Assembly: GCA_024228555.1 (NCBI GenBank)
Contig: JAAETI010000304.1
Coordinates: 6,229 to 70,228, forward strand
Direction: 5' to 3'
DNA length: 64,000 nt
DNA from: a bacterium
Lineage (GTDB): Bacteria > Actinomycetota > Acidimicrobiia > Spongiisociales > UBA5794
Shown one piece after another: positions 11,439-42,535 of the stretch. Position 1 is the first letter of the stretch. The number at the start of each line of letters is the position of its first letter. The translations under genes were made by a program, and so were the position numbers. The notes under the pieces are model-generated. The model made no database searches and was not told where the DNA came from. It saw nothing but the letters and a program-made list of their open reading frames with translations.

Positions 11439-12713
11439 TTAGCTCTTATCGCGAGGTGGCTGGTCGTACCATCGGTTCAGAGCCGGAGCGTAGCCTGCAA
11501 ATCGAACTGCGCTTCCTGCGGCCCAACTCAGCGGCCGGGCAAATGCACCTGTCACGCCGGCAGTCGCGGCGGCGGCAAGTTGGAATGGTGCCGACAGCAA
11601 GCTGATCAATGCGATCTGGTTTGTCCGTCCTGCCGCCGTCATCTCCTGGATTACCAGCGTGATGAGGCCCATCAAAAGGTTGGCCCCGATCGAGGCTGCG
11701 ACAAGCCACGAAACCTCGTAGGCACCGGGGACGAGGCGCAGCATCGGGTTCCCCGCCCAGTCTGTACCAACCAGCGCGAGATACGCCACCGCAGCCGCAG
11801 TGACCAGCAGGGCGAACTGGAAACGAATCCGGCGAGCCGCGGCTCTATCGACCCGGATCGCGGCTTTCATGACCCGCGGGCCAAGCACATAACTGAGTCC
11901 GGTACCGAGTACCAGGAGGGGGTGAGCAACGACACGGGCCGACTCCGCATAGCCCAGCACCTCGGTTCCAGCGATGTAGCCGATGATGGTGGCTGCTCCG
12001 AATTTCGTCACCGCCGGTATCCCGACCCCAGCGAGTAGGCCCGACCCAGACCGAACGAGGTCGCGCAGCAGAAGTGGCTCAACTGGTTCATCCGGGCGCC
12101 GCCACGGTGTTGCCAGCGCGATCCCGGTCAGCAGCGAGGACGCGTTGGCAACGGCAAGAGCACCGAACGGGATCCAAATGCCAGGCACGTCACTCAGATT
12201 GAGAACGGCGATGGCGCCCACCGTTGCCACCAGCTGCGCCGACGACACCGCAACCGATGCCCACGATCGCTGTGCAATGTGGAGCAGCCGGCGAACGTGA
12301 TCCTGGCTCGGCCACAAGAATGTGGTTAGGGCACCGGTGATCGCAAGCGGGGTGATGACCTCGGCTGTGGAGATAGGTGCGGTGGCCAGGGCTGCAAATG
12401 CTATCGCCAGGACTCCCGCAAGAGACGGCCCCACGCCAAGCCGGAGGGTTTGGGAGAGAGCCCGGAGCCGTATGCGTTGCGGCCAGGACACCGTCACAAC
12501 TTCGGCGGGGACAAAGACGAGGTTGCTTGCCAGCACCTGTCCAAGGGTGAACGCGGTGAAGAAGACCGCATATACCCCAATCTCCGATGCCTCGAGCACG
12601 TTGACCGCAACGAGGCCCGCCACAAACGTGGCGAGTGACGAAAGGCCGGCATCCACGACACCGGCCGACAACTGCAGAGATCGGCTAGGTCTCTGGGCTT
12701 GCTGCTGGCTCAT
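11439..12713 (-). CDS. Wzx/MOP-like polysaccharide flippase (paralog 1)
   Basis: About 12 hydrophobic segments, N-terminal VVDAGLSSLATF...GVYAVFFT; located in polysaccharide locus; clear paralog at 23812-25101. Confidence 0.7.
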   Translation of the reverse strand: MSQQQAQRPSRSLQLSAGVVDAGLSSLATFVAGLVAVNVLEASEIGVYAVFFTAFTLGQVLASNLVFVPAEVVTVSWPQRIRLRALSQTLRLGVGPSLAGVLAIAFAALATAPISTAEVITPLAITGALTTFLWPSQDHVRRLLHIAQRSWASVAVSSAQLVATVGAIAVLNLSDVPGIWIPFGALAVANASSLLTGIALATPWRRPDEPVEPLLLRDLVRSGSGLLAGVGIPAVTKFGAATIIGYIAGTEVLGYAESARVVAHPLLVLGTGLSYVLGPRVMKAAIRVDRAAARRIRFQFALLVTAAAVAYLALVGTDWAGNPMLRLVPGAYEVSWLVAASIGANLLMGLITLVIQEMTAAGRTNQIALISLLSAPFQLAAAATAGVTGAFARPLSWAAGSAVRFAGYAPALNRWYDQPPRDKS

Positions 12714-14206
12714 GGCCGAACAGCCGCCGCACCGATGTTGGCCTCGCGGTCCTGGTCGATGTGGAGTTCGCCGCGGCGCGCCAAGACGGTCAACGCAGCA
12801 CCTGCCCCGTAGAATGTCCAGAGCCAGATCGACACCTGCGGACCCTCGAGAGTTGGATCAAAGATGGCGTTGACGAGGATCGGCACCGGACTCAACATGA
12901 TCCAGCTGGCGATAGCCGTTTCACGGAAATGGCGGCGGGCTCGCAAGCGACGCCGGGTTATCTGCATCCCGGCGAACCACGAGAACCAGACAACGACCCA
13001 AAGCATCACGCCTACCCACCCCTGCCGCGCCAGTATGCCGACATGTGAGTTGTGGGGGTTGCGCAGCGGAGTAGTCGGGTCGGTGCTGATGTCATATCTC
13101 TCGCCCAGATCGGGCCCCGGCCCGAACCCGGCAATCGGTGTTTCCTCAGTGACATCTGAAAGCACTTCGCTCCAGATCCTCAGCCGCCACTCGGTCGTGT
13201 CCTGCTCGCGTGACGTACCCGCCTCACGATCGAAGATGCTCGTCACGTTGCCCACGAACTGCTCAACTGAGACGTCGCGCTGATCAAAGACTTCAAGCCG
13301 AATGTCGAACGTGATTGCCAATGACGCAAGGACGATTCCGACGCTGATCATGACGAAGGCAAGGTCACCACGACGTCGGCTCAGCATGAACATCAACAGC
13401 AGCAACGCAACGGTGGTGGCGACGAGGCCGCCGCGATTCTGCAGACCAGTGAAGAGGATCACGATGGTGCCGAGGCTGGTGAGAGCGATGCGCTGGCGGA
13501 GCGCAAAAAGGTGATTGTCGGCATCAACGAGCCACAGCCAGGCGATCCCAATCGCGGCGATCACCGACATGTTCCCCGTACGATGCGCCAGAACGGCGAC
13601 ATTCGAGTCGGGAACGCTGACGAGGAGGGCCGGGATCGTCTTGAGGACAATCGAAAACGGGTACCAGATCAGCATGAAGGGGAGGGCTCGGCCGAAAAGC
13701 GTCGACCAGCGATCGAGTCGCCGTGGATCCCACGCGATGAGCGAGGCGACGAGGAAGGCGGTCAGTCCGTAGTACCAGAGGGCGGAATCTCGGATGGCAT
13801 CAAGCCCCCACGCCGGTGCCCCGAGGACCAGCAAGATGGCACCCCACAGCATGTAGAGCCGCAGCGTCTTGAAGGAGTGGCCACCCCGAACGAGCGGACT
13901 GACTCGGTTGGCGGAGGTGAGCATCATCGCAACGCCGATGGCGAGGACCAACTCACCCACGAACAACGGTGTTCCGGGGACATGGAACCACGCAAAGCCC
14001 CGATCGAGCATTGCGTACCCAAAGAGGGCGGCCAGCAGTGCGGTTTCGAACCAGCCCACGATGTTGGGTTCAGTCAGCTCGTCCTCGTGCGGAGCGGCGA
14101 TCAGCGAGATCCCGCCTGTGATCCGGAAACGTGTGGACACCTGGCCTCGGGTTCCCAGAGTTAGCGCCAACAGGAAGGCCAGCGCGGTAGCGCCCCCGAC
14201 CACCAA
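12710..14206 (-). CDS. O-antigen ligase/Wzy-like polymerase
   Basis: Multi-TM protein; NRGG, WRLRIW, GFGPG, PHNSHVGILARQGWVG typical of the Wzy_C domain. Confidence 0.85.
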   Translation of the reverse strand: MVVGGATALAFLLALTLGTRGQVSTRFRITGGISLIAAPHEDELTEPNIVGWFETALLAALFGYAMLDRGFAWFHVPGTPLFVGELVLAIGVAMMLTSANRVSPLVRGGHSFKTLRLYMLWGAILLVLGAPAWGLDAIRDSALWYYGLTAFLVASLIAWDPRRLDRWSTLFGRALPFMLIWYPFSIVLKTIPALLVSVPDSNVAVLAHRTGNMSVIAAIGIAWLWLVDADNHLFALRQRIALTSLGTIVILFTGLQNRGGLVATTVALLLLMFMLSRRRGDLAFVMISVGIVLASLAITFDIRLEVFDQRDVSVEQFVGNVTSIFDREAGTSREQDTTEWRLRIWSEVLSDVTEETPIAGFGPGPDLGERYDISTDPTTPLRNPHNSHVGILARQGWVGVMLWVVVWFSWFAGMQITRRRLRARRHFRETAIASWIMLSPVPILVNAIFDPTLEGPQVSIWLWTFYGAGAALTVLARRGELHIDQDREANIGAAAVRP

Positions 14207-14326
14207 TGTGGTCGTGTTCGCCGCAACGAGAACTAGCGAGTCGCCTGTGATTATGTGTCCCTTCCTGTCGGTTGGAGATTAAGGCCTGCTGGGCTCGCAG
14301 GAGCCCGCTTGTGACTGTGTATTGGT

Positions 14327-16126
14327 CTAGCCAGCGGCATCTGTCGAGGAAAGGGCCGGATCTTGGTCTACGGGTTGCTGTGCCATCCGGATCATTTCGC
14401 GGCGCAGCGGTGCTCGGTTGTAGACATAGCCAATCGTCGGCGTGCCAACGGTGCGGAGCCGCTCCCGGAGCTCTGCAGCGTTGGGGGCGCTCCCGCCATG
14501 ACCGACGACCACGAGTGTTGTATCGGCCAAGCGCAGGATGGTTCCGCTGTAGGCAACCCGCAGCAGCGGCGGGGTGTCGATGAGTACTAGGTCATAGTCG
14601 AGACGGAGCCGATCCATGATGGCGGACGCCCGTTCCGATGCGAAGAAGTCGGCAGACTCGGTCATCGCGATCCCGCGGCTGAAGAGAGTGAGCGTTCCGA
14701 TCCCGCTGACGGCGATTTGGTGGCCCGCGGCATCGGTGTCGGCACCGTCGGGGGCGACGTCGGTCAGTCCAAAACGGGGTTCATCGGTGACCAGCATGCC
14801 GGTGAGGGATTGACCGACGAAGTCAGCGTCGATGAGTGCGACCCGGTTGCCGGCTTGGGCGGCCGCAAGCGCGGTATTGGCGGTGACGGTCGTGCTGCCT
14901 TCGAGGTGGGCTGCGGCAACGATGGCGACAGACGTCGACTGTGCTGGAAGCCCGTCGCTGTTACTGCCCTGCGGTCGGCCGGCGAGACCCGATGCCACGA
15001 ATCGGAATGATTCTGCAGCGACTGAGGAAGACGCCTCGACGGTGGGGAGTTCGGTACGCAGCCTCTCCTCCGCGAACAGCGGGATATCGGCAATCAGATT
15101 GGTTCCCAAAACGACTTGCGGTTCGGTGCGGTCACCGAAGTGGCGGCGGCCACTAGCGAGGTAGAACGCCAGTGCTCCACCGAGCATGGCACCGAAGATT
15201 GCCCCTGCAACTGCGAGGACCGCGACCGATGATGGGGCGGCCGTCCGCGCCTCGACAACAAACGTTATCCCACTGCCCGCGACTTCTGCGTCAACCATGA
15301 GTTCGTCGCGGCGAAGTTGCAGCGCAGCCAGCCGGGTCAGCAGATCCGACTGCTGGCGCACTATTGCGTCGTCAACCGTCGGGGTGCCAACCTCATCCAA
15401 TGCAGCCTGCATTGTGTTGATCAGTGATTCGAGCTCGGCGAAGCGGTCGGAGAACTGCCCAAGGGCCAGATTGTCGTCGGCAGCTGGAGGGACATCGAGT
15501 GCCAGCAGCTCACCGACGGCGTTGTCGATAGCTGTTTCGAGGCTTGTGGCACTCGCCGAGAGCTCGGCCTCCTCCGCAAGCTGTCTCGCCAGACCGGTGA
15601 GTTCGGTCTCGAATTCCGCGATCGCCGCGTTGAGCTCGTTGATCGCCGAGGCGCGCGTATTGGCCGCGGCTTCGCGACTGACCTCGCGGTATGCGTCGAT
15701 CACGGCATTGACTGTGGCGATTGCGGTGTCTGGGTCGACGTGGGAAAAGCTAATGGTGATGACGTCGGTCGAAGACGCGGACTGGACGGCGAGGCCCAGC
15801 TCGATCCACAACGCAGACACAGCACGCGGTGGCTCGGCTGCTGCGAGGTTGCGCTCTGCCGTCTCGGCGACAGCGTGCGAGCTAATGATCGCCCACTGGT
15901 TCGACACATGTCGGCGTGGATCGAGTTCTGCGTTGGCGGCGAAGACCGCAGACGAGCGCGGGTCCTGGACAGTGACCGATGCAGTTGCAGTCCATGTCTG
16001 GCTGTCGCTGGCGTAGTACCACCCTGCGATCCCAAACAAGATGGCAAAGAGCAACACGATGAACCGATACCGCCAAGCCGCACCCAAAAGGGTCGGCTGG
16101 AACGGGGTGGATTTGCGGTCGGTCAT
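14327..16126 (-). CDS. Wzz/Wzc-like polysaccharide copolymerase with degenerate kinase domain
   Basis: TM-coiled coil-TM, AESFR, Walker A EGSTT (Lys lost), LIDAD, LVLIDTPP; ATG at 16126 aligns with paralog N-terminus FQPT..GAAWRYR. Confidence 0.85.
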   Translation of the reverse strand: MTDRKSTPFQPTLLGAAWRYRFIVLLFAILFGIAGWYYASDSQTWTATASVTVQDPRSSAVFAANAELDPRRHVSNQWAIISSHAVAETAERNLAAAEPPRAVSALWIELGLAVQSASSTDVITISFSHVDPDTAIATVNAVIDAYREVSREAAANTRASAINELNAAIAEFETELTGLARQLAEEAELSASATSLETAIDNAVGELLALDVPPAADDNLALGQFSDRFAELESLINTMQAALDEVGTPTVDDAIVRQQSDLLTRLAALQLRRDELMVDAEVAGSGITFVVEARTAAPSSVAVLAVAGAIFGAMLGGALAFYLASGRRHFGDRTEPQVVLGTNLIADIPLFAEERLRTELPTVEASSSVAAESFRFVASGLAGRPQGSNSDGLPAQSTSVAIVAAAHLEGSTTVTANTALAAAQAGNRVALIDADFVGQSLTGMLVTDEPRFGLTDVAPDGADTDAAGHQIAVSGIGTLTLFSRGIAMTESADFFASERASAIMDRLRLDYDLVLIDTPPLLRVAYSGTILRLADTTLVVVGHGGSAPNAAELRERLRTVGTPTIGYVYNRAPLRREMIRMAQQPVDQDPALSSTDAAG

Positions 16127-16494
16127 GACACTCCGGCGTCTGGAATAGGCGGGACGAAAATCGAGCGTACTACAACCTGGAAACAGCTCACCTGAGGGTA
16201 CGAGGGACAGGTCATTGGTTCGTTGGCTCGGTGTCGATCTGTGACGCCTGACTGATGATGGGGGCAGATAGACCGATCTGGGTAGGGGGCTGACCTGTGG
16301 TGCGTGTCCAGGTCTTGTGGGGCTTGCCGCGCTCCAACCATCCCATATACTGCGAACGCATTCACAGAGAACCCAAGGGGGCAGAGTTTCGTGGTGGGAA
16401 CACATTCATCAATGTCACCGGCTGCAATCCGCCCGCGTGGCGGATCAGTAGTCAAGACGGGGGCCAGCCCGTCACAATTGAGAGGTAGGAAGCA

Positions 16495-17514
16495 ATGAAG
16501 ATTGCGATCTTTGGTGTAGGCGGATTCATAGGTTCGAATCTCGTTGAGCACCTTGTCGAAGAAGGTGTCCATGAAGTCGTCGGTATGGACGTCACGAATA
16601 GCAAGCTCGCCGGTATCGAGGGCGCCAACTTCAAGTACATCGAAGGCAACGTCGGCTCGGACGTGACAACGGCCGAAGAGCTGACCGAGTGGGCTGATGC
16701 CGTGGTGGACTTGATTGCCTACGCCAACCCGAGCATCTATGTCGAGGCACCTCTCGATGTCGTGCAGCTCAACTTCTTCGAGAACATGAAGATTCTCGAT
16801 TACTGCCTCAAGTACCAGACCCGCCTCATCCAGTACTCAACGTCTGAGGTATATGGGAAGCGGACTCGGGACGAGGAGTATGTCGAGGACAGTTCTGATT
16901 TGGTCATGGGTCCGGTCACCAAGCAGCGTTGGATCTATGCGGCGTCCAAGCAACTGCTCGAGCGCATCATCCACGGGCACGGTCTGCGTGGCGACCTCGA
17001 CTACTCGGTAATCCGTCCGTTCAACTTTGTTGGGCCACGGTTTGACTACCTCGTGCCTGCGGGCGCCAAGGGTGGACCGCGTGTCTTCTCGCACTTTGTT
17101 TCGGCCCTGATCACGGGCGGACCTATCCATCTTGTCGATGGTGGCGGCCAGCATCGTTGCTTCACCCACATCAAGGATGCGTCAGAGGCTTTCTCCACCA
17201 TCCTCGAGCACCCGGCTGCGCATAACCAGATCTTCAACATCGGCAACCCCGACACGAACATCACGATGCGTGGGTTGGCTGAGATGATGGGCGGGATCTA
17301 TACCGAGCTCACCGGGAAGGCGCCTAGCAACGAGATCATCGAGATCTCGGGTGAGGATTTCTACGGCAAGGGCTACGAGGACATGGATCGGGTACCGCCG
17401 AATGTCGACAAGCTGAGGGCACTCGGTTGGACACCAAAGCGTGACCTAGACAACATCTTCCGCGAGGCGATCGCGTTCTACCTAGAACCCGAGCGCCACG
17501 CCTCGATTGTGTAG
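16495..17514 (+). CDS. UDP-glucuronate decarboxylase-type SDR (ArnA C-terminal / UDP-apiose-xylose synthase-like)
   Basis: GVGGFIG, STSEVYG, QRWIYAASK, RPFNFVGPR, LVDGG, FNIGNP, FYGKGYED; SD gaggtagga. Confidence 0.85.
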   Translation: MKIAIFGVGGFIGSNLVEHLVEEGVHEVVGMDVTNSKLAGIEGANFKYIEGNVGSDVTTAEELTEWADAVVDLIAYANPSIYVEAPLDVVQLNFFENMKILDYCLKYQTRLIQYSTSEVYGKRTRDEEYVEDSSDLVMGPVTKQRWIYAASKQLLERIIHGHGLRGDLDYSVIRPFNFVGPRFDYLVPAGAKGGPRVFSHFVSALITGGPIHLVDGGGQHRCFTHIKDASEAFSTILEHPAAHNQIFNIGNPDTNITMRGLAEMMGGIYTELTGKAPSNEIIEISGEDFYGKGYEDMDRVPPNVDKLRALGWTPKRDLDNIFREAIAFYLEPERHASIV

Positions 17515-17636: not shown

Positions 17637-20012
17637 ATGAGTAGCAATTGGTGGCGAGCCTGCAGTAGTGGGCTCGCCGTCGTTGCGCTGTTGGCGATGG
17701 CGCCGGCGGCGGGGGCGACCGAGGTTCCCGATGGCGACATCATGATCATCGCCGCACACCCCGACGACGACATCATCACCGCGGCGGGCATCATCAGCGA
17801 TGCCACCGACAACGGTCAAACGGTCACCATTGCCTATATGACCAATGGCGATCGGTGCGCAACTCCCAGCCAGACACCGGCGAACTGCTCAGCGGTGGAC
17901 CCGGACATCGGGGACGTGAGGCAAGACGAGAGCGTCGACGCGCTCACCGAGGTGCTCGGCAGCGATTTCGTCGAAGACAACATGATCTTTCTTGGTTACC
18001 CGGGCGGCTTTCTTCCATATCTGCGCAACGGCACACCGCTTCCCGGCGACCTTGCGCACATCGCCACCTATGCCGACCAGGGCCTGAACAACACCGACTG
18101 GCACGACACCTGGAAGGGTGCGGGCTCTCAGCATGCTCTTTACACGGCAGGGGCCATATCCGAAGATCTCTACGAATTGCTCCTTGAGTATCGGCCCGAC
18201 CACATCTTCACTCACTCGGAGTTTGATAGGCATAGCGACCATCTCTCGACGTACCGCGAGGTGATGGAGGCGATTGATGAAGTGCAGGACACTGTCCCGT
18301 CGTACGACCCATACGTTCACACGACCATCGTTCATGTAGCAGAACCGGCAATACCACTGTCGTGGCCCGCTTCAGCCGATCCGACTGCATGGCATGTTCC
18401 CGTTCCATTCCTCGACCACGATGATGTCAGTGATGGGGAACTGCTTTGGGCCAGTCGGGAGAGTTTCGAGGTACCGGCCCCGATGCAGAGCACCAATCTG
18501 TCACAGAATCCAAAACGAGAGGCTATCGAAGCCCACGCAACACAAGCTCCGGACGAGGGTGGCTTCATCCGGAAGTTCCTTCACCGTGATGAGGTGTTCT
18601 GGATTGAGCGTCTTGGTGACCCGGAGGGAATCGCAGACGCCTACACGGTCGCCGAGGGCGGCGACATTGATCAGACGGATACCGGGCCTACCGGGGTCTT
18701 GGCCAACGATGTCCGCGGAGTATTGCTGGGACCGTCCACTCTGGGTCCGATGACAGCGTCGGCCGTGATTAGTGGTGTCGACCACGGCACCTTGTATCTC
18801 GACTCGGAAGGGTGGTTCACCTACACCCATGACGGATCCAACACCTCGTCTGATTCCTTCACTTATCGACCCAAGCAGGGTTCGTCGAACGGGACGGTTG
18901 CGACTGTGACCATCACAGTCATTCCAGACGATGAGGTTCCAACCGCCGACGACGACGGGCCCTACGACGTTTCTCACGGTGGCAGCCTTACGATATCGGC
19001 GCCCGGCGTCCTCGACGGGGACGTTGATCCTGAAGCGGGTGAGCTCACCGCGGCGGTCGAGGCGAACCCCATCCACGGCACTTTGACGCTGAACGCCAAC
19101 GGCTCGTTCACGTATGTCCACAACGGGACTACCACGACCGCAGACAGTTTTACCTATCGCGCCGTCGATGGGGGCGGCAATCAATCCAACATCGCGACAG
19201 TGACTTTGGACATCGCTCCCGCTTCTGGTTTCAACGTGTCGATCGCCGGCAGCGCCACTGGGGCAGAGGGCACCCTCGCTTCGTTTACTGCCAACGTTTC
19301 TGGGGGCAGCGGCAGCTACACCTACGACTGGTCGATCAAGCTCGCCGGTGTCGAGGTCTTGCCGGGGAGCCTCTCCCAACTGACCTTCACCCCCGACGAA
19401 GGTGGCGTGTACACCGTTGAGCTGCTGGCAGGTGATGGCTCCAGCTTCGCGACTGACACATTCACTTTCACGGTGGTAGGTGACCTCGGCAGCAGTCCGT
19501 TCACCGGCGACATCATCTGGTTGGCGAACCGGGGTATCACTCGCGGCTGCAACGCCGATGGGACCGAGTTCTGTCCGACCGATACCGTGACCCGTGGCCA
19601 GATGGCGGCGTTCCTGGTCCGTGCCCTCGAGCTCACCGATGACGGTGGTGGCAACACTTTCACCGATGACGACGGTTCCATTTTTGAAGATGACATCGCC
19701 AAGCTTGCCGAGTCCGGTATTACCCGTGGCTGCAACGCTGCTGGCACCAAGTTCTGTCCGGAGCAACGGGTGACCCGTGGCCAGATGGCTGCGTTCTTGG
19801 TGCGGGCGTTTGCTCTCACTGATGACGGTGGCGGTAATTCGTTCACCGACGACGACGACTCGATCTTCCAGGACGACATCGCCAAGCTGGCCGCGGCTGG
19901 TATCACCCTTGGGTGCAATCCACCTGCGAACACCAAGTTCTGTCCCGATGGTTTGGTGACTCGGGGACAGATGGCCGCATTCCTGCTCAGGGCCGAGAGC
20001 TGGCTACCGTAG
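17637..20012 (+). CDS. Secreted PIG-L/LmbE-family deacetylase with Ig-like (cadherin-like/PKD) domains and three C-terminal SLH-like repeats
   Basis: Signal peptide, AHPDDD, TNGD, HSDH; GVLANDV/HGTLTLNANGSFTY repeats; three GITRGC..FCP..VTRGQMAAFL repeats. Confidence 0.85.
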   Translation: MSSNWWRACSSGLAVVALLAMAPAAGATEVPDGDIMIIAAHPDDDIITAAGIISDATDNGQTVTIAYMTNGDRCATPSQTPANCSAVDPDIGDVRQDESVDALTEVLGSDFVEDNMIFLGYPGGFLPYLRNGTPLPGDLAHIATYADQGLNNTDWHDTWKGAGSQHALYTAGAISEDLYELLLEYRPDHIFTHSEFDRHSDHLSTYREVMEAIDEVQDTVPSYDPYVHTTIVHVAEPAIPLSWPASADPTAWHVPVPFLDHDDVSDGELLWASRESFEVPAPMQSTNLSQNPKREAIEAHATQAPDEGGFIRKFLHRDEVFWIERLGDPEGIADAYTVAEGGDIDQTDTGPTGVLANDVRGVLLGPSTLGPMTASAVISGVDHGTLYLDSEGWFTYTHDGSNTSSDSFTYRPKQGSSNGTVATVTITVIPDDEVPTADDDGPYDVSHGGSLTISAPGVLDGDVDPEAGELTAAVEANPIHGTLTLNANGSFTYVHNGTTTTADSFTYRAVDGGGNQSNIATVTLDIAPASGFNVSIAGSATGAEGTLASFTANVSGGSGSYTYDWSIKLAGVEVLPGSLSQLTFTPDEGGVYTVELLAGDGSSFATDTFTFTVVGDLGSSPFTGDIIWLANRGITRGCNADGTEFCPTDTVTRGQMAAFLVRALELTDDGGGNTFTDDDGSIFEDDIAKLAESGITRGCNAAGTKFCPEQRVTRGQMAAFLVRAFALTDDGGGNSFTDDDDSIFQDDIAKLAAAGITLGCNPPANTKFCPDGLVTRGQMAAFLLRAESWLP

Positions 20013-26204: not shown

Positions 26205-26206
26205 AG

Positions 26207-32949: not shown

Positions 32950-33714
32950 ATGACCTTCCCGGAAAAAGCGCCAGTTGTTGGTGTGCCCATCTCGCTCACG
33001 TCCTATGAAGGGGTCTTTGAGGCCATCTCGAATCGACCGTCTGATAGCGCGACCGTTGTTGCAGTATGCAATGTACATTCGGTCATGTCGGCTCGGCGCG
33101 ACCCCGATCTGATGGTCGCGATCGGTGGGGCGGAGATTGCCACGCCGGATGGCGTCCCCATCGTCTGGGGATTGCGGAGCACCGTCCGCAGGGAGCAGCA
33201 GCGGGTCTATGGGCCCGAGCTGATGAGATTGGCGATGGTCCGTTCCGAGGAACTCGGTTGGACGCACTACATCTACGGCAGCACTCCGGACACGATCGAG
33301 CAGCTAGAAGCAGCCATTGCAGGCTTTGCCCCCAGGGCCCAGATCGCCGGGTCGGAATCGCCACCGTTTCGCGAGATGACGGAGGCGGAGACTGAAGCCT
33401 CGCTCACCGCGATCCGCACTAGCGGTGCCGACGTGGTCTGGGTTGGGCTGGGCATGCCAAAGCAAGAGCTATGGATGCATGAGATGCGCGCAGCACTGCC
33501 CGGTGTGGCCGTGATCGGCGTCGGTGCCGCGTTCGACTTCATTGCCGGCACCAAGAAGCAAGCTCCTGAGTGGATGCAAAAGGCGGGTTTGGAGTGGCTA
33601 TTCCGGTTTGTGCAGGAGCCACGCCGGTTGTGGCGTCGCTACCTGTGGAACAACCCCTCCTACCTTGTACTATTGGGCCTTCAGGTGCTGAAGAGCAAGC
33701 TCAGAAGAAGCTAG
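32950..33714 (+). CDS. WecB/TagA/CpsF family glycosyltransferase (GT26)
   Basis: PDGVPIVW, RVYGPEL, SPPFR, WVGLGMPKQE, GVGAAFDF, APEWMQKAGLEWLFR..EPRRLWRRY. Confidence 0.94.
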   Translation: MTFPEKAPVVGVPISLTSYEGVFEAISNRPSDSATVVAVCNVHSVMSARRDPDLMVAIGGAEIATPDGVPIVWGLRSTVRREQQRVYGPELMRLAMVRSEELGWTHYIYGSTPDTIEQLEAAIAGFAPRAQIAGSESPPFREMTEAETEASLTAIRTSGADVVWVGLGMPKQELWMHEMRAALPGVAVIGVGAAFDFIAGTKKQAPEWMQKAGLEWLFRFVQEPRRLWRRYLWNNPSYLVLLGLQVLKSKLRRS

Positions 33715-33745: not shown

Positions 33746-35461
33746 CTACGGCGTGTAGCTGCCCGTTGTGTCGTGGCCAATGTCCTGCCAACCAGAGAAC
33801 GAATGGGTGTGGGCTTCCCAGTTCCAGTCCACATCGCCGACATAGTCGTTGTTCTCCCAGCGGTTGTTGCCAGGTTCGTAGATCGCCTGGCTGCCGATGT
33901 CCTGGGCGGCGCCGCTCAGACCGCTGTCCACGATGACGTTGTCGTGTACGTAGTTGTTCTGGGCCAGGTACTTGCCGTACTCACCACTCCCACGGTCTTG
34001 CTGAGTGATGGTGATTCCGTTGTGGTTGCCCTCTAGGTAGTTGCCGTAGATCTCGACGCCCTGTGATGAGGCAATAACGATGCCGCCTCCCCACAGCCAC
34101 TGGGCGTGCCCAAAGCCGTTGTATCGGATGGTGTTGTTGCGGATGATCCCGTCGTACCCGATCTCATGGAACAGTCCGTTGGCAAAGTTGTGCTCAACGA
34201 GGTTGTTCTCGTAGATGATCCCGATGTTGTCGTGGTCTGTCCAGAAGCCCGGCCCGTGGTTGTGGTGTGTCCAGTTGCCGCGCACAGTGAGGTTTGTCGT
34301 TGACCAGAACTTGGAACCACCCGCTTCGAATCCCCAGTTGTAGTCCTGCTCGAAGTTGTTGTAGGCAACCTCGTTGTTCTCGATAAGGCCATTGACAGAG
34401 TGCGGCACATTGATACCGAGTTGGTAGTTGTGGTGGATGTTGTTGAAACGCACCGTCGGCGTTCCCGACGAGAGCCGCACCCCAACCGCTGCATTGTGAT
34501 GAATGTCACATCCTTCAACGGTCCAGTCGCCGCCGTCGGCGTCGATGGCGCCGCGTTGCTTGTTGGAGTCGTAGTTACGGATCTCCAGGTTGCGTAGCAG
34601 CACATCATCCGCGGACCCATCGAAGGCGTAATCCGTTGTGTCATTCCCATCGAGCACGGCGTCATTGGCTCCGATGAACTGTTGGCCGTCGCGGGGCTTG
34701 ATTGTCTGGCGATTGTGGGTGCCGTGGATCATGAAGACTGTGCCCTCAGGGCTGTCCTTGGCGAGATCTCCAATGTCGTCACCCGGGTAGACGTGCTTGT
34801 CGATATCGACTTCTTCGAATCGTGGGGGAGGGTTCATCGGGACGAGTTTTTCGGCTCGACCGATCAGTGTCGCCATCTCGTCGCGTCGCAGCAGAGAGTT
34901 CGGGCAGTAGCGACTGTTGACAGGTGGGTTGCAGCCCGCGGTGACACCGGCCTTGCGCAGACGGTTGATCGCATCCTCGTGGATTGAGGATTCGTCATCG
35001 ACGAAGGAGTCGGTGGACGTCGATGGATAGCCGTAGCCACGGACCAGGAATGATGCCATCTCGGCTCTGGTCAGGCTGCGGTCCGGACAGAACTTGCCGT
35101 CACCGCATCCCGATGTCACGCCGGCGGCTGCAAGTTTGTTGATGTCGCTCTCGAATATCGAGTCGCCGTCGTCGGTGAACCAGTCTTTGCCGCCGTCGCT
35201 GGTGAGGTCGAGGGCTCGGACCAGGAACGCGGCCATCTGGCCGCGGGTGACCACCCGGTTAGGGCAGTACTCGGAATTGAATGGTGGGTTGCATCCCGTG
35301 GTGATGCCCGCGGCAGCGATTGCCTCGATGTACCCCTCGTGGATGTTTTGGTCGTCGTCGGTGAAAGATCCACCGGGATTTGCTGCTTGGGCTGCCGGGA
35401 TTGCAACGAGTGTTGCCGAGGCAACCGCGGCGACAATAAGTAGTCGTGAGAAGGTGCGCAT
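33746..35461 (-). CDS. Secreted protein: three N-terminal SLH-like repeats + right-handed beta-helix domain
   Basis: Signal peptide ending AQA; TRGQMAAF/TRAEMASF/RRDEMATL repeats; beta-helix domain paralogous to 30226-31779. Confidence 0.85.
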   Translation of the reverse strand: MRTFSRLLIVAAVASATLVAIPAAQAANPGGSFTDDDQNIHEGYIEAIAAAGITTGCNPPFNSEYCPNRVVTRGQMAAFLVRALDLTSDGGKDWFTDDGDSIFESDINKLAAAGVTSGCGDGKFCPDRSLTRAEMASFLVRGYGYPSTSTDSFVDDESSIHEDAINRLRKAGVTAGCNPPVNSRYCPNSLLRRDEMATLIGRAEKLVPMNPPPRFEEVDIDKHVYPGDDIGDLAKDSPEGTVFMIHGTHNRQTIKPRDGQQFIGANDAVLDGNDTTDYAFDGSADDVLLRNLEIRNYDSNKQRGAIDADGGDWTVEGCDIHHNAAVGVRLSSGTPTVRFNNIHHNYQLGINVPHSVNGLIENNEVAYNNFEQDYNWGFEAGGSKFWSTTNLTVRGNWTHHNHGPGFWTDHDNIGIIYENNLVEHNFANGLFHEIGYDGIIRNNTIRYNGFGHAQWLWGGGIVIASSQGVEIYGNYLEGNHNGITITQQDRGSGEYGKYLAQNNYVHDNVIVDSGLSGAAQDIGSQAIYEPGNNRWENNDYVGDVDWNWEAHTHSFSGWQDIGHDTTGSYTP

Positions 35462-35572: not shown

Positions 35573-36949
35573 CTACCAGGCGTCCGAGGCTCTTGGGGTG
35601 ATCTCATGTCCGGTGCCCATGCCTTCATAAGTCAGGCCGGCGGCACGCACCCGGGCGGGATCAAAGACGTTGCGACCATCGATCACGAGGTTGCCGCGCA
35701 TCTTTGAGGCCACTTCCTCGAAGTCGAGGTGGCGAAGCTCATCCCACTCTGTGACAAGAACTAGAGCATCGGCACTCTGTACGACTGCATATGGATCGCT
35801 GCTGGTTTGCAGGTCTGGCAACTCAGGGATCTGCTTGACGAGCGGATCGTAGGCCCTGACGATGGCGCCCCGGTTCGCCAACTCCTTGGCGATTGTGATG
35901 GCTGGAGCATCGCGAACATCATCGGTCTCCGGCTTGAACGCAAGTCCGAGCAACGCGACCCGACTGCCCCGAAGCGGGCGTAGATGCTGCTGGAGCTTGG
36001 TGATGACACGATGGCGCTGCTTGAAGTTGACAGCCATCGTGGCCTCGAGGAGTGACGGATCCTGGCCATGGGCCCGAGCAGTCGCGGCGAGCGCCTCGAC
36101 ATCCTTGCCGAAGCATGAACCACCCCAACCGACACCGGCCTGGAGGAACTGTGCGGAAATCCGGGAGTCGAGGCCCATAGCTCTCGCAACCTCTTTGACG
36201 TCCGCGTTCACCCACTCGCAGATCTCTGCGATCTCATTGATGAAGCTGATCTTGGTAGCGAGGAATGCGTTGGCCGCGTACTTGATCGTTTCGGCTGTGG
36301 ATCGATCGGTTTTGACGAGGATCGGATGATCGGTCGCCCGCCCGCCGGGGAATGCCTGCTTGAGGATGGGGTCATAGGCGGCAGCGACGGCGTCGACTGC
36401 CTCGGGGTGGGTGCCTCCGAGCACAATCCGCTCCGGATGGAGGAAGTCACGCACAGCGCTCCCTTCGCGGAGGAACTCTGGATTGCTGACAACCGAAAAG
36501 ACATCGCTGTCGACGTCATCCCCGAGCACGTTCTCGATCGTCGAGGTGAGCCAGTTGCCGCTGCCGACAGGCACAGTGCTCTTGGTAACGATGACGTGGG
36601 GGGAGTGCATCGCCATTCCAATACTCTTGGCGGCTGCAGTCACATTCGTGATGTCCGGGTGACCACCCTCACCGGGAGGGGTGTCTACGCACAGAAAGAC
36701 GACCTCTGAGTTGGCCATGGCCAACTCATAGTCATCGGTGAAAGTGAGATTTCCGTTGTCGACTCCGTCGCGAAGGAGTTCGTCGAGGCCGGGCTCATAG
36801 AAATACGAGGAACCGCCCTGAAGCATCGCGAGTTTTTCTGGGTTGATCTCGACCCCGACAACCTCATGGCCTATCTTCGCCATGCAGGCGGCCACCACCG
36901 TACCCACGTACCCGCTACCGATTACTGAAATACCTGAATCTGAAATCAC
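35573..36949 (-). CDS. ugd: UDP-glucose/GDP-mannose dehydrogenase
   Basis: GSGYVG, KSTVPVG, NPEFLREG, KYAANAFLATKISF, GGSCFGKD, GLAFKP. Confidence 0.92.
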   Translation of the reverse strand: MISDSGISVIGSGYVGTVVAACMAKIGHEVVGVEINPEKLAMLQGGSSYFYEPGLDELLRDGVDNGNLTFTDDYELAMANSEVVFLCVDTPPGEGGHPDITNVTAAAKSIGMAMHSPHVIVTKSTVPVGSGNWLTSTIENVLGDDVDSDVFSVVSNPEFLREGSAVRDFLHPERIVLGGTHPEAVDAVAAAYDPILKQAFPGGRATDHPILVKTDRSTAETIKYAANAFLATKISFINEIAEICEWVNADVKEVARAMGLDSRISAQFLQAGVGWGGSCFGKDVEALAATARAHGQDPSLLEATMAVNFKQRHRVITKLQQHLRPLRGSRVALLGLAFKPETDDVRDAPAITIAKELANRGAIVRAYDPLVKQIPELPDLQTSSDPYAVVQSADALVLVTEWDELRHLDFEEVASKMRGNLVIDGRNVFDPARVRAAGLTYEGMGTGHEITPRASDAW

Positions 36950-37260
36950 TGTCGTCCCCTTTGCCCCTGGTCGTGAGCTCTCGATCTGGCAGACGAGAGT
37001 CAACCATCAATACAACGCGGAGTATACAAGTGGGAACCCAGAGTGAGCGGTGTGGTAGCCGCCTCGTACCAATTTTGGGTTACAGCAGACTCGGCGTGGT
37101 AATGACCTGCCAGATTCAACGTCACCGACGGTTTTGTGCGGTGCACTAGCCAAGGTGACCAGTCGCAGATTAGCGGGCTGGCCCAATTTGGCATGAGGGC
37201 TAAGGTTCCACCTGCGCTGGCCGTTGCTGGCGCCGCCATTGCAGACCAACACTCTGAGAG

Positions 37261-39096
37261 ATGTGGATGTACGACTCGTACTCACAGGATTTTGAACCGA
37301 CAGTCGCGGGTGCGGCTTGGCAGTACAGATGGTTGGTGCTGTTCCTGGCCCTCGGTTTTGCCGGGCTCGGATGGCTGTTGGCGAGCAATCGCGAGGCCTA
37401 CACCGCCACTGCCGTGATTCTTGTCGAAGATCCACGTTCGTCGAACCTATTCGATGGGGGCACAGTCGGCTCGCCCGAGCGTTATGTGCGAAGCCAGGCT
37501 GAGATCATGTCGTCGTTGTCTGTCGCGCAACGAGCGAGTGAGATTGCAGCACACGCCGATCCGTCGGTGCTTATCACGGCTGACGAGATCAGCGCACAGG
37601 GCCTTGCCATTGATTCGGATGAAGACAGCAGCCTCATCCGTATTTCCTATACAGCGGAGAATCCGTCGGATGCCGTTGAGGTGGTGAACTCCGTTTCCGT
37701 CGCCTATCAAGAATTGGGTCGTGAACTGGCGATCAGTGAATATGAGAGCGTCCTTCAGGAGCTGGATCTGCTAATCGTGCAGCTGACTATCGATGGGCAG
37801 GATCTCCAAGATGAATTGCGCCGCCTTCGCACCAGCGATGCTGAGCGGCTGGCGATCCAAGATCAACTCGAGGGAGCAATTTCCCGTCTTCTGTTGCTGG
37901 AGACCACTCCACTAAACGGAACGCCGGAGGACTACGCACAGACTGCGGCAGAACTCAGCGAGATTGGGCTGCAGATAGCGACTCTTCGTGCGGCTCTGGC
38001 CAACCAGGCTGACGACCCTGCAATCCAGGTGCTTGAAGCACAGAGCACCGATGTGCAGAACCGGATCATCAGTTTGCAAGAGGTTCGCGATCAGCGTGCG
38101 GTCGATGCTCAGCTCATCAGCAGCGGAGTGGTGTTCTACGACCCGGCCGTTGAAGGAATTGCCTCCAGCGCGGCGACTCTTGTCGTTTTTGGTTTCTTGA
38201 TGGGCTCAGTGTTGGGGGCGGCAATGGCGGTGCCCTTGGCGAGACGTCGTCGTCGCTTCAGCTCTCGGATCGAACCGGAGTCCGCCCTCGGGGCTCCGCT
38301 CCTTGCCGACATCCCCTCATTCTTCGAAGAGCGTCTGTCCACCAATTTGCCTGCGGTTGAGGCATCGGCTAGCGCCGCCGCCGAGTCCTTCCGTTTCGTG
38401 GCATCCGCGATCGCCCTGCAACGCGACCGTGCCTTCGGCGACGAAGAGGGTCCCGCCTTCAAAACAGTCGTTGTCACCTCAACATCCGTTTCTGAAGGTA
38501 AGACCACAGTCATCGCCAATACCGCCTTTGCTGCTGCTCGCGAGGGAAGTCGGGTGCTGGTCATCGATGCCGACTTTGCCGACCAGGGCCTCACCAGGTT
38601 GATGGTGGGCTCCGCGATCCCCGAGGCTGGGCTTGCCGAGGTGGTGACCGGGATCGCGACACTCGATGATGCGCTGGTTTCGGTGCCGATGGAAGACGCC
38701 GGTTCGGTTGATCTGCTGCACGGCGGCAAGGTTGTCACCTCAGCGTTCGATCTGCTGTCGTCGGGCGCCGTCGAGGGCATCTTCGCCGAACTCGCCAAGC
38801 GCTATAACTTGATCCTGATCGACGGGCCACCGTTGCCGCGGGTGGCGTATTCGACAACGTTGGTGCGTCTTGCCGACCGGGCGCTCGTGGTCGTCGCTCA
38901 TGGTGAGGACATCCGCGGCACCCAGGAGTTGCGTCGTCAGCTGAACCTCATCGAGACACCGGTTATGGGTTACGTATACAACCTTGCGCCGCTACGTCCT
39001 GAGATGGCCCTTGCCGTTGGGTCGACCCGACCGTCGCGTGATCGATCGCAGGTCTCCGACGAGGTAGCTGATGACGATGAGGCAGACGACGCCTAG
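37261..39096 (+). CDS. Wzz/Wzc-like polysaccharide copolymerase/BY-kinase
   Basis: TM-coiled coil-TM; AESFR; intact Walker A SEGKTT; VIDAD; LILIDGPP; no C-terminal Tyr cluster. Confidence 0.88.
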   Translation: MWMYDSYSQDFEPTVAGAAWQYRWLVLFLALGFAGLGWLLASNREAYTATAVILVEDPRSSNLFDGGTVGSPERYVRSQAEIMSSLSVAQRASEIAAHADPSVLITADEISAQGLAIDSDEDSSLIRISYTAENPSDAVEVVNSVSVAYQELGRELAISEYESVLQELDLLIVQLTIDGQDLQDELRRLRTSDAERLAIQDQLEGAISRLLLLETTPLNGTPEDYAQTAAELSEIGLQIATLRAALANQADDPAIQVLEAQSTDVQNRIISLQEVRDQRAVDAQLISSGVVFYDPAVEGIASSAATLVVFGFLMGSVLGAAMAVPLARRRRRFSSRIEPESALGAPLLADIPSFFEERLSTNLPAVEASASAAAESFRFVASAIALQRDRAFGDEEGPAFKTVVVTSTSVSEGKTTVIANTAFAAAREGSRVLVIDADFADQGLTRLMVGSAIPEAGLAEVVTGIATLDDALVSVPMEDAGSVDLLHGGKVVTSAFDLLSSGAVEGIFAELAKRYNLILIDGPPLPRVAYSTTLVRLADRALVVVAHGEDIRGTQELRRQLNLIETPVMGYVYNLAPLRPEMALAVGSTRPSRDRSQVSDEVADDDEADDA

Positions 39097-39167
39097 CTGG
39101 AAACGCCCTTTGCTTTGCGGCTTCTATCCTTGGCGCAAGAGCACATCCAGATCACCTGTGAGGACTC

Positions 39168-40559: not shown

Positions 40560-40568
40560 ATAGCGTTG

Positions 40569-41498
40569 CTACTGGTGGTTTTCCCACCAGCCGATTGTCT
40601 TGGTCAGACCCTCTTCGAGAGCGGTGCCCGCCTCGAAATCGAAGAGCTGGGCTGCCTTGGTGGTGTCCAGCTTGCGACGGGGTTGGCCGTCGGGCTTGGT
40701 GGTATCCCAAACAACATTGCCTTCGTATCGGGTCAATTTGGCGATTAGCTCGACTAGCTCACGGATTGTGATTTCGTGGCTGGTGCCGACATTGACCGGC
40801 TGGTCGCCGTTGAACATCTCGGTTGCGGACACGATTGCCCGAGCGGCGTCCTCGACATAGAGGAACTCACGTGAAGCGGACCCCGTGCCCCATGCAGCTA
40901 CTTCCGGCGCATTCTCATCGCGGGCGGTGATGAACTTGCGGATGAGGGCGGGTATGACGTGCGAGGTCTCGAGATCGAAATTGTCGCGAGGCCCATACAG
41001 GTTGACCGGCAGGAGGTAGATCCCGTTGAGCCCGTATTGCTGGCGATATGCCTGCAACATGACCAAGAGACTCTTCTTGGCGACGCCGTACGGGGCGTTG
41101 GTCTCCTCTGGGTATCCGTTCCACAAGTCTTCCTCGCGGAACGGAACAGGGGCAAACTTCGGGTAGGCGCATACGGTGCCGACCTGGACAAACTTCTCCA
41201 GGCGCTGTCGGCGAGCCTCTTCGATGAGGTGAAGCCCCATGGCCATGTTTGCGTAGAAGTAACGACCGGGATTGGATCGGTTGGCGCCGATGCCGCCGAC
41301 CTCAGCGGCCAGGTGGATAACCAAATCAGGGTTGGCGTCGGCGTACAGCTGGCGAACAGCGTCTTGTTCGGTCAGGTCGTAGTCGGCCCTTCTTGGGATG
41401 AAGAGCTCGCCGGCTCCAGCGGCCTCGAGCTGTCCACACAGAAACGAGCCAAGGAAGCCGGCGCCACCGGTCACGACGATTCGCTTGTCGGCAATCAC
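40569..41498 (-). CDS. fcl: GDP-L-fucose synthase
   Basis: [51 protein letters not shown]. Confidence 0.94.
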
Positions 41499-42535
41499 CG
41501 ACCGGCTCCGTTCCACTCGATGCTCTTGAGGCCTGCGTCGACAAGGGTCCTTTCCTGCTTCGCCAACTCGAGATCCGACTCGACCATCATCTCGACAAGC
41601 TCATCGAATCTGACCTTCGGTGTCCAGCCGAGTTCCTTGCGGGCCTTGCTGGCATCACCTTCGAGCAACTCGACCTCCGCGGGGCGCATGTAGCGGGGAT
41701 CGAACTCGACGTGCTTCTCCCAGTCGAGGTCGAGCAGTTCAAACGTCTTGTGGGCGAACTCCCGCACGGAGTGTCGCTCACCGGTTGCGATTACGTAATC
41801 GTCCGGCTCGTCTTGCTGGAGAATCAGCCACATGGCCTCGGTGTAGTCACCGGCAAAGCCCCAGTCACGCTCGGCGTCCAGGTTGCCGAGGTATAGCTTG
41901 CGTTGCAGCCCGAGCTTGATCCGGGTGGCGGCTCGTGTGATCTTGCGGGTGACGAACGTCTCGCCACGTCGTGGTGACTCGTGGTTGAACAAGATCCCGC
42001 TGCAGGCGTACATGTCGTAGGCCTCGCGGTAGTTGACCGCCTGCCAGAAGCTGTAGACCTTGCCGACCGCATAGGGAGAGCGCGGGTGGAACGGTGTTGT
42101 CTCTGATTGAGGTGTTTCCACCACCTTGCCGTACATCTCTGACGACGAGGCCTGATAGAAGCGGATCTTGGGATTGGTCATCCGGATCGCCTCGAGCATC
42201 CGTAGCGTCCCCAGCGCGACGACGTCTGCGGTGTAGATCGGGTTTTGGAAAGAGACGGCCACGTGGCTCTGTGCCCCGAGGTTGTACACCTCGTGCGGGT
42301 CGACATCCTGCATCAGCCTGCTCAGGCCGTTGCCGTCTGCAAGGTCTCCGTAGTGGAGGAACAGCTTGGCGCTCTCGACGTGAGAATCCAGATAGAGATG
42401 GTCGATTCTCTCAGTCGCAAAGGTTGAAGAACGACGGATCAATCCGTGAACCTCGTAACCCTTTTCAATGAGCTGCTCCGCGAGGTACGAACCGTCCTGG
42501 CCGGTGATGCCTGTCACCAAGGCTCGGCGTGTCAT
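41495..42535 (-). CDS. gmd: GDP-mannose 4,6-dehydratase
   Basis: [51 protein letters not shown]. Confidence 0.96.

Follow-up and report, generated by a model that had tools for sequence, protein, structure and literature searches.

The locus and its genes

The window analysed in this study, a stretch of 64,000 nucleotides from an actinobacterial genome, holds between positions 11439 and 42535 a polysaccharide biosynthesis locus in which a ketal-pyruvyltransferase gene lies among genes for three secreted proteins with SLH repeats. A preliminary description of this DNA had proposed that the lineage makes a pyruvylated polymer on which such proteins dock, with the CsaB-like and TagA-like genes of the window as the makers of the ligand. 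The genome that holds the window (G000) is a 5.4-Mb metagenome-assembled genome (MAG) of 1027 contigs and 97.7% completeness. SecA identity of up to 89% with MAGs labelled Acidimicrobiia bears out the actinobacterial host and places it as an uncultured Acidimicrobiia bacterium.

The long open reading frames (ORFs) between 11.4 and 43 kb were translated and then scanned against Pfam and NCBIfam, with the following assignments.

11439..12713, minus strand: 12-helix membrane protein A, possibly a divergent Wzx-type flippase (about 12 hydrophobic segments)
12710..14206, minus strand: Wzy-like polymerase/O-antigen-ligase family membrane protein (Pfam Wzy_C, E 4.3e-16, 59.5 bits; about 10 hydrophobic segments)
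14327..16405, minus strand: copolymerase 1, Wzz-like chain-length domain plus P-loop tyrosine-kinase-like ATPase (Wzz 24.5 bits, cut-off 25.5; AAA_31 32.2 bits)
16495..17514, plus strand: UDP-4-keto-pentose/UDP-xylose synthase of the UDP-glucuronic acid (UDP-GlcA) decarboxylase type (NCBIfam NF008872, 300.1 bits against a cut-off of 294)
17637..20012, plus strand: secreted PIG-L-type de-N-acetylase with Ig/cadherin-like domains and three C-terminal SLH repeats (PIG-L E 1.7e-23; Big_9; Cadherin_4; SLH 45.8 bits)
20175..22733, plus strand: secreted PD40/TolB-like beta-propeller protein with cadherin-like domains and three C-terminal SLH repeats (PD40 E 8.7e-28; Cadherin_4; SLH 38.4 bits)
22799..23815, minus strand: GT2 glycosyltransferase (Glycos_transf_2, E 7.7e-40)
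23812..25101, minus strand: 12-helix membrane protein B, possibly a divergent Wzx-type flippase (12 hydrophobic segments; counterpart at the same position in the related locus L031)
25098..26255, minus strand: GT4 glycosyltransferase (Glycos_transf_1 and Glyco_transf_4)
26207..27334, minus strand: ketal-pyruvyltransferase, apparently of a CsaB-related subfamily of exopolysaccharide (EPS) type (PF04230, PS_pyruv_trans, E 1.7e-28)
27331..28983, minus strand: GMC-family FAD oxidoreductase, possibly a sugar oxidase (GMC_oxred_C, E 1.3e-23; 4-base overlap with the pyruvyltransferase gene)
29039..30298, minus strand: GT4 glycosyltransferase (Glycos_transf_1, E 7.4e-19)
30226..31821, minus strand: right-handed beta-helix protein with a lipobox-like N-terminus, ...VVLAAC (Beta_helix, E 1.8e-20)
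32099..32818, plus strand: small polyprenyl-phosphate sugar-1-phosphate (priming) transferase (Bac_transf, E 1.5e-53; TIGR03025 228.9 bits, under the cut-off)
32950..33714, plus strand: WecG/TagA/CpsF-family glycosyltransferase (PF03808, E 1.2e-57; PDB TagA 7mpk, E 2.9e-27)
33746..35461, minus strand: secreted protein with three N-terminal SLH repeats and a beta-helix catalytic part (SLH 49.3 bits; Beta_helix E 1.1e-30)
35573..37003, minus strand: UDP-glucose 6-dehydrogenase, supplying UDP-GlcA (three UDPG_MGDP_dh domains; TIGR03026 435.5 bits against 189.8)
37261..39096, plus strand: copolymerase 2, Wzz-like domain plus P-loop tyrosine-kinase-like ATPase (Wzz 22.9 bits, just under the cut-off; AAA_31 33.9 bits)
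39168-40559, plus strand: class II Asp/Asn-type tRNA synthetase, between copolymerase 2 and the GDP-fucose genes
40569..41516, minus strand: GDP-L-fucose synthase-like epimerase/reductase (Epimerase E 3.3e-58; NF047922 295 bits, missing the cut-off of 500)
41495..42535, minus strand: GDP-mannose 4,6-dehydratase (TIGR01472 525.1 bits against 415; domain from residue 187 of a long ORF ending at 43084)

The Wzy-like polymerase, the priming transferase and the TagA-family transferase were recovered by Pfam and NCBIfam where the preliminary description had placed them. So were its two copolymerases, each a Wzz-like and kinase-like fusion in which the AAA_31 domain lies above and the Wzz domain marginally below the Pfam cut-off; on the NCBIfam tyrosine autokinase model copolymerase 1 scored 67.6 bits and copolymerase 2 79.6 bits, both under the model cut-off. 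With regard to membership of the Wzx/Wzy pathway, a priming transferase, a Wzy polymerase and a Wzz-type copolymerase were all found in the locus. The two proposed flippases fared less well. Two paralogous 12-helix membrane proteins (A and B, 43% identical) are indeed present, but neither has a Pfam or NCBIfam match, Pfam giving nothing even at E 10, and protein B showed no BLASTP similarity to the Polysacc_synt protein of the genome. Among 120 listed of 149 homologues of protein B, some are named O-antigen/teichoic acid export membrane protein by JGI and 2 carry a Polysacc_synt-type domain (PF13440 or PF01943), so that a flippase role for A and B is plausible but weakly supported.

SLH repeats and their carriers

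Repeat mapping confirmed that the three secreted proteins starting at 17637, 20175 and 33746 each have exactly three SLH-like repeats. All three pass the curated Pfam SLH cut-off of 20.8 bits and begin with a signal-like hydrophobic stretch. The trimer is C-terminal in two of them, at residues 657-825 of the PIG-L protein (numbered from the start of its ORF, 17520-20012) and residues 682-850 of the PD40 protein (ORF 20166-22733). It is N-terminal in the SLH-beta-helix protein (33746-35461), at residues 33-203, and this protein matches the Sap SLH trimer in the PDB at E 2.6e-10.

A hidden Markov model (HMM) of our own, built from seven window repeats, found 54 SLH-repeat ORFs on 40 contigs of G000, 35 of them with three repeats. 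SpoIID, M15, M23, VanY, VanW, GSDH and GH26 proteins and PL14 lyases are among the carriers, as are CEMIP/G8 beta-helix, 5'-nucleotidase, fn3 and Calx-beta proteins. The repeat pattern reads F-x-D-D..S-I-F..D-I..L-A-x-A-G-I-T-x-G-C-(loop)-F-C-P...V-T-R-G-Q/E-M-A-A-F-L-x-R-A. In P. alvei SpaA, according to PMC6081394, the TRAE-type Arg and the GIIxG-type Gly contact pyruvate and a Trp (SLH-Trp13) stacks on ManNAc. Here, the corresponding Gly and Arg are invariant in every repeat of 16 aligned trimers (alignment and profile A1) and the Arg pattern was seen in 129/132 repeats; the conserved Trp is lacking, its position being mostly Phe or His. An extra Cys pair (GC...CP) was present in 130/132 repeats, flanking the loop beside the ligand-contact Gly, and is absent from the solved SLH trimers aligned to these repeats; this could be a disulfide-stapled SLH subtype. 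The A1 profile aligned in register over all three repeats with B. anthracis Sap (3pyw, E 2.2e-18) and also matched SbsB (4aq1), SpaA (6cwc) and OmpM-type SLH structures.

These features bear on the possibility that the repeats bind no pyruvylated glycan, being attached to peptidoglycan or another wall component, and that SLH and pyruvyltransferase genes are close to each other through a general clustering of envelope genes. The variant character of the repeats, with the Cys pair in 130 of 132 and the stacking Trp mostly replaced, speaks for such a model. Against it, there is no variation at the pyruvate-binding Arg or the flip Gly, and the profile is in register with pyruvate-binding SLH trimers. 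The distribution of the genes, considered below, bears on it from both sides as well.

Placement of the window pyruvyltransferase

The description of the gene at 26207-27334 as a CsaB-like pyruvyltransferase holds for the gene and its family: the PS_pyruv_trans model PF04230 is covered over positions 1-276 of 280, and the start at 27334 is consistent with full-length relatives. It does not hold for CsaB itself, since the curated cut-off of the CsaB model is missed and the enzyme falls in a clade apart from the proteins that pass it. The only NCBIfam match is to that model (TIGR03609, positions 3-290 of 301), with 120.6 bits against a cut-off of 213.1; the ortholog in locus L031 scored 119.8 bits. 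The WcaK model gave no match at E 0.01 and a PDB sequence search returned nothing at E 0.01.

A HMMER search against 1.84 billion representatives gave 2882 matches at E 1e-3 and 12 at 1e-30, the best being 61% identical, and the ten nearest relatives bear the generic JGI name "WcaK-like". When 90 of the 150 listed homologues were scanned on the CsaB model (fragments, long fusions and the weakest matches being excluded), 56 fell under 150 bits, 8 at 150-213 and 26 reached 213, and the nearest ones were all low scorers. A tree of 100 rows (quick IQ-TREE, LG+G4, SH-aLRT support only) groups the window enzyme with the L031 ortholog and 53 database proteins under 150 bits in a 55-row clade (SH-aLRT 96), and all 26 rows reaching 213 bits are outside; as the root is uncertain, separation from CsaB means clade membership taken together with score classes. 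The PEP-binding residues of P. alvei CsaB are given as H308 and K328 in PMC10435577. In the 55-row alignment H282 and K302, likewise 20 residues apart and likened to that pair by spacing alone, are invariant, and the window enzyme is probably active. Taken together, it looks like a member of an EPS-type branch of the CsaB-related family and not a bona fide CsaB. A role as the CsaB ortholog of its order was considered and rejected; high-scoring CsaB-like proteins of the order, in genomes G065 (202 bits), G085 (192 bits) and G037 (189 bits), are outside its clade.

The loci of its relatives were collected by a pattern scan, with one genome per species, for the 12 closest sequences. Of the eight loci found, one belongs to an Acidimicrobiia MAG (L031 in genome G151, with a pyruvyltransferase of 54% identity) and the other seven to Acidobacteria, Planctomycetes and Proteobacteria. 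L031 shares the gene order of the window core, namely UDP-Glc dehydrogenase, SLH-beta-helix protein, TagA-family transferase, Bac_transf, beta-helix protein, GT4, GMC oxidoreductase, pyruvyltransferase, GT4, membrane protein and GT2, so that the SLH-beta-helix ortholog is kept at the same position; G151 has 19 Pfam SLH matches. In three of the four annotated non-actinobacterial loci (L055, L056 and L060) the neighbours are of EPS type (Poly_export, a Wzz-GNVR kinase, Bac_transf, GT4, and acyl- and sulfotransferases), and the neighbours in the fourth (L057) are glycosyltransferases only. None of these four loci has an SLH gene, and Pfam SLH found nothing in the four non-actinobacterial holder genomes (0/4).

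These results bear most directly on the possibility that the window locus itself makes the pyruvylated SLH ligand, or a second one, by a Wzx/Wzy route with LCP attachment, so that the co-encoded enzymes would dock on its product. Several points favour it: the enzyme has no named NCBIfam match other than CsaB, whose model is covered throughout; the pyruvyltransferase gene has three SLH-trimer genes within 10 kb; a TagA-family gene belongs to the locus; and the SLH-beta-helix gene is kept in the syntenic L031. However, the clade of the enzyme is apart from the proteins passing the CsaB cut-off, and its relatives occur in EPS loci of genomes without SLH.

Distribution of SLH and pyruvyltransferase genes in the class

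The class sample comprised 151 genomes, 37 of them in the order of the window (G000 included) and 114 outside it, on which six queries were run; the genomes are mostly incomplete MAGs, and all genome counts are to be read with this in mind. Control genomes of Thermus, Deinococcus, Synechococcus and Thermotoga were positive for both the SLH and the PS_pyruv_trans families. Pfam SLH was found in 17/37 genomes of the order and in 0/114 outside. The A1 trimer profile found the same 17 strongly, and gave weak matches in 32/35 small genomes of a family outside the order (f11).

With the window pyruvyltransferase as query, the gene was found in G000 alone among the 17 SLH-positive genomes, besides a 29%-identical match in G065, and nothing was found outside the order. 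Being absent with this query from 16/17 SLH-positive genomes of the order, a pyruvyltransferase of the window type cannot be what SLH anchoring in the order depends on. The CsaB model TIGR03609 matched in 13/17 SLH-positive and 3/20 SLH-negative genomes of the order (the latter at 50 bits or less) and in 18/114 genomes outside it, and no match anywhere in the 151 genomes passed its cut-off. With a truncated gene in G113 counted, 14/17 SLH-positive genomes of the order have a pyruvyltransferase. The TagA family (PF03808) occurred in 4/17 SLH-positive vs 8/20 SLH-negative genomes of the order and in 45/114 outside. The pyruvyltransferase and the TagA-family gene of the window do not track SLH. 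Phylogeny and co-occurrence, two of the checks on which the ligand-making role of the window enzyme had been made to depend, went largely against it: the enzyme groups with EPS-type proteins and does not follow SLH in its distribution.

The TagA-family enzyme of the window passes the superfamily model, and scored 133 bits on EpsA (cut-off 500), 107.4 on WecG (323) and 78.3 on TarA (350). The enzyme priming beside it is of the Bac_transf and not of the TagO/WecA type, and the sole WecA-like gene of the genome is on another contig (C810). It had been remarked that no mnaA or LCP gene is visible in the window. This is correct for the window; both are present elsewhere in G000, as three LCP genes and two intact MnaA/WecB-type epimerase genes, one of which is beside the WecA/TagO-like gene, and all are unlinked to the window. 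We considered their absence from the window as a point weakening a wall-polymer reading and rejected it, as the genome has both. For a ligand made by the window the same genes are two-edged: their presence in the genome favours it, and their lack of linkage counts against it, as does a TagA family that does not track SLH.

The f11 genomes are streamlined genomes of about 1 Mb from another order of the class. Three degenerate SLH-like repeats are found in one SpoIID-type protein, as in L138 (G005:C1:869942-873232), where peptidoglycan-binding-type repeats were seen by eye too. No pyruvyltransferase was found in these genomes (0/35), and the degenerate stretch looks like a remnant of an SLH system.

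A GT2-pyruvyltransferase fusion beside SLH genes

Three pyruvyltransferase genes were found in G000: that of the window, a fusion with an FrhB-like domain on contig C383, and a GT2-pyruvyltransferase fusion on contig C912. The loci of the two fusions are as follows.

L015:874-18594 (C912 cluster): GT4, NDP-sugar dehydrogenase, SpoIID-SLH, M15-SLH, GSDH-SLH, GT2-pyruvyltransferase fusion, Glyco_trans_1_2, GT4, M23-SLH, DUF3048, GT2
L014:342-11042 (C383 locus): pyruvyltransferase fused to an FrhB/FdhB-like (F420-type) domain, with a 1519-aa multi-GT protein, an LPG_synthase_TM protein and a GH26-SLH protein as neighbours

The C912 fusion stands among SLH-bearing SpoIID, M15, GSDH and M23 proteins in G023, G073 and G033 also. 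When it was used as query, its GT2 and pyruvyltransferase parts were both covered in 10 SLH-positive genomes (contig breaks allowed), and the gene in G113, cut by a contig end, brings the total to 11/17; outside the order only partial matches were found. In 9/11 of these genomes no more than 6 kb separate the fusion from an SLH trimer gene. G151, the other holder of a window-type locus, has the fusion too, 6 kb from an SLH gene. Near-threshold CsaB-like genes (189-202 bits) take the place of the fusion in G065, G085 and G037, and that of G065 adjoins an MnaA-like gene and SLH genes. In the SLH-negative family f3, the best matches are confined to the GT2 part in G129 (query residues 7-505) and G057 (9-360); in G117 the best match breaks off at residue 704 of the 882 in the query, and no CsaB-model match was seen there. 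This pattern suggests a joint loss of SLH and the pyruvyltransferase domain in f3. The C912 fusion locus, as the conserved neighbour of SLH genes across the order, is most likely the better candidate for the maker of the SLH ligand.

The trimers themselves are consistent with this. The trimer of the SLH-beta-helix protein of the window is 63, 59 and 57% identical to the C912 trimers and only 50-51% identical to the other two of the window; its nearness to the former and the invariant Gly and Arg would fit one common ligand.

The distribution of the fusion also weighs on the model in which the repeats bind no pyruvylated glycan. Three SLH-positive genomes (G069, G089 and G125) have no pyruvyltransferase detectable with the CsaB model or the C912 fusion query, and the f11 genomes keep their degenerate SLH-like stretch with no pyruvyltransferase match, as that model would have it. 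On the other side, the CsaB model matches in most SLH-positive genomes of the order and, weakly, in few SLH-negative ones, and the fusion matches in SLH-negative relatives keep no recognisable pyruvyltransferase part. With the invariant ligand contacts added, we regard a pyruvate-independent attachment as very improbable.

A further matter is the position of the SLH genes in G000. Eight SLH ORFs lie within 10 kb of its three pyruvyltransferase genes, 3 of them in the window, and random placement gave a mean of 0.45, with 8 reached in 1/20000 placements; as SLH genes cluster among themselves, this comparison overstates the significance. One might propose two ligands, the C912 product anchoring the housekeeping SLH wall hydrolases and the strain-specific capsule of the window displaying the same pyruvate-ketal epitope to a subset of SLH proteins. 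In keeping with it, each pyruvyltransferase gene of G000 has SLH genes at its side, every trimer keeps the ligand-contact Arg and Gly, and G151 holds a window-type locus, the fusion and SLH together. Nevertheless, the two enzymes are in different clades, an identical epitope has no support, and more must be assumed than for a single ligand; we hold this arrangement to be quite unlikely. The simpler form, in which the window makes the ligand, shares the argument from SLH neighbours at all three loci. It is set back by the points already given, by the failure to find the enzyme with this query in 16 of 17 SLH-positive genomes of the order, and by the existence of a better-conserved candidate at C912, and it too appears unlikely. 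Both forms together, that is, the window polymer as the ligand or as a second ligand, amount to about one in three.

Other glycan genes of the genome

A further polysaccharide cluster, without an SLH gene or TagA, is present on contig C810.

L013 (C810 cluster): WecA/TagO-like protein, WecB/MnaA (303.7 bits against 210), GFO/IDH/MocA protein, NDP-sugar dehydrogenase, heparinase II/III-like protein, sulfotransferase, Polysacc_synt flippase

In the window, the tRNA synthetase gene at 39168-40559 is probably a housekeeping gene, and three other ORFs remained without assignment, Pfam at E 10 giving nothing useful. Downstream of the locus, positions 45217-52796 hold a second, unassigned group of envelope-glycan genes, coding for a 924-aa protein (13 hydrophobic segments, faint GT2 match), a DUF5719 protein and a 730-aa protein (16 hydrophobic segments, no family match), followed by GtrA, GT2 and phosphomannomutase genes.

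A proposed accessory polysaccharide locus with SLH-docked enzymes

The reading that we favour, with a probability of roughly 0.5, is that the window contains an accessory locus of capsule or EPS type whose enzymes are docked through SLH trimers, the anchor ligand most likely being provided by the C912 fusion locus. The window locus looks like an accessory locus at strain level. Of the original proposal, this retains a lineage with a large SLH repertoire that co-occurs with pyruvyltransferases, and gives up the CsaB-like and TagA-like genes of the window as the makers of the ligand.

A number of observations weigh against this reading. CsaB is the only named NCBIfam family that the window enzyme matches; the NCBIfam scans returned just two pyruvyltransferase families, CsaB and WcaK. 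The distinction from CsaB depends on score classes and on clade membership in a quick tree of uncertain root, and the window-type subfamily is represented by 8 genome loci, with 4 genomes tested for SLH. Three SLH-positive genomes gave no pyruvyltransferase with either query, and most of the sampled MAGs are incomplete, which bears on all genome counts. Around the three pyruvyltransferase genes of G000, SLH ORFs are more frequent than random placement would give, and SLH genes inside the window locus, one of them kept in the synteny with L031, would also be expected were the window polymer the ligand.

If the favoured reading is correct, synthesis would be Wzy-dependent and, judging from the gene families, controlled by the Wzz/kinase-like proteins. 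The small Bac_transf enzyme would prime undecaprenyl phosphate, and the TagA-family transferase, one GT2 and two GT4 enzymes would assemble the repeat unit. We infer that the precursors made by the locus include UDP-GlcA, UDP-xylose or UDP-4-keto-pentose, and GDP-fucose. The EPS-type pyruvyltransferase would attach a pyruvate ketal and the GMC oxidoreductase may oxidise a sugar, before the unit is flipped by one or both 12-helix proteins and polymerised by Wzy. The beta-helix protein at 30226-31821 is possibly a glycan lyase, hydrolase or epimerase. Outside the cell, the SLH proteins (the de-N-acetylase, the beta-helix glycanase or lyase and the beta-propeller protein) may act on the polymer or the wall, held on the cell by trimers that would bind a pyruvylated wall glycan. 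In a cell with a single membrane, docking by SLH would replace the periplasmic confinement of such enzymes in the EPS systems of Gram-negative bacteria.

Relation to known systems

One of the closest known counterparts is the CsaB-dependent secondary cell wall polymer system of B. anthracis and P. alvei (TagO, TagA, MnaA and CsaB; Sap, SpaA and SlhA). In common with it, secreted proteins carry a terminal SLH trimer, the TRAE-type Arg and GIIxG-type Gly are kept, pyruvyltransferase genes are beside SLH genes, and many enzymes appear to be docked. Unlike it, the window enzyme is under the CsaB cut-off, priming is of the Bac_transf and not the TagO type, TagA genes are not distributed with SLH in the order, a GT2-pyruvyltransferase fusion takes the place of the conserved partner, and the repeats have an extra Cys pair and no conserved Trp.

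In its composition, the window locus resembles Wzy-dependent loci for pyruvylated EPS or capsule in Gram-negative bacteria, such as that of colanic acid with WcaK: it shares Bac_transf, a TagA/CpsF-family enzyme, GT4, pyruvyltransferase, Wzy and Wzz/kinase-like proteins, and in three of the four annotated loci of relatives the neighbours are of EPS type, with Poly_export, a Wzz-GNVR kinase and Bac_transf. Xanthan, with GumL and the TagA-family GumM, and succinoglycan, with ExoV, are examples of pyruvylated EPS in Gram-negative bacteria. The window locus differs from these loci in a single-membrane host, which implies no outer-membrane exporter of the Wza type, in the SLH anchors of three accessory enzymes, and in the lack of a match to the WcaK model. 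The co-occurrence of SLH and PS_pyruv_trans within a lineage is shared with SLH/CsaB tethering in diderm Terrabacteria (Thermus, cyanobacteria and Thermotogae), with the difference that here SLH is found on exoenzymes and wall hydrolases instead of an OmpM-type porin.

Anchoring by SLH and pyruvate is the textbook route by which Firmicutes hold proteins on the wall, and Actinobacteria are usually portrayed with sortases, lipoproteins or the mycomembrane. It had been stated that no characterised example is known in Actinomycetota. Our literature search found no paper on an SLH system in Acidimicrobiia, and nothing on SLH together with a pyruvyltransferase in Actinomycetota from 2021 on. The claim of novelty was too strong, since SLH and SLH/CsaB in Actinobacteria are in print at survey level (PMC6081394; PMC5817068; bioRxiv 10.1101/2021.05.31.446380). 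Published work reports Pfam SLH matches in Actinobacteria (PMC6030368; PMC6801904; PMC6081394, the last with 33 species), SLH-bearing orders named as Coriobacteriales, Bifidobacteriales and Micrococcales (PMC5817068), and pyruvylated wall polymers without known function in Promicromonospora and Nocardiopsis (PMC6801904). One survey notes SLH/CsaB co-occurrence in "a few examples within Actinobacteria" and scores any PF04230 match as CsaB (bioRxiv 10.1101/2021.05.31.446380). Such counting is too coarse, as 18/114 SLH-negative genomes outside the order match too.

Significance

For annotation, a "CsaB-like" match beside SLH genes does not identify the enzyme that makes the ligand, as CsaB matches below the threshold include EPS-type enzymes. 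The window is more ordinary than it was taken to be, an accessory polysaccharide locus whose processing enzymes would use the general anchor of the lineage. A bolder picture, to which we give little credence, is that the order anchors about 50 surface enzymes through a new SLH subtype, each repeat stapled by a disulfide beside the ligand groove, on a pyruvylated glycan made without TagA by the bifunctional GT2-pyruvyltransferase, and that in this strain the separately acquired EPS-type enzyme of the window furnishes a capsule with a pyruvate ketal to which SLH can bind. If this were true, some of the SLH enzymes would leave the wall for the capsule, which would serve as a programmable second docking layer.

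The broader meaning concerns the order as a whole. SLH anchors are heavily used in one order of abundant, uncultured Acidimicrobiia, where they carry wall hydrolases, lyases, nucleotidases and glycan enzymes. The likely pathway to their ligand is unlike that of the model systems: it involves a GT2-pyruvyltransferase fusion, and TagA is not consistently present. What emerges is a variant, particular to this lineage, of an anchoring mechanism that is already known.

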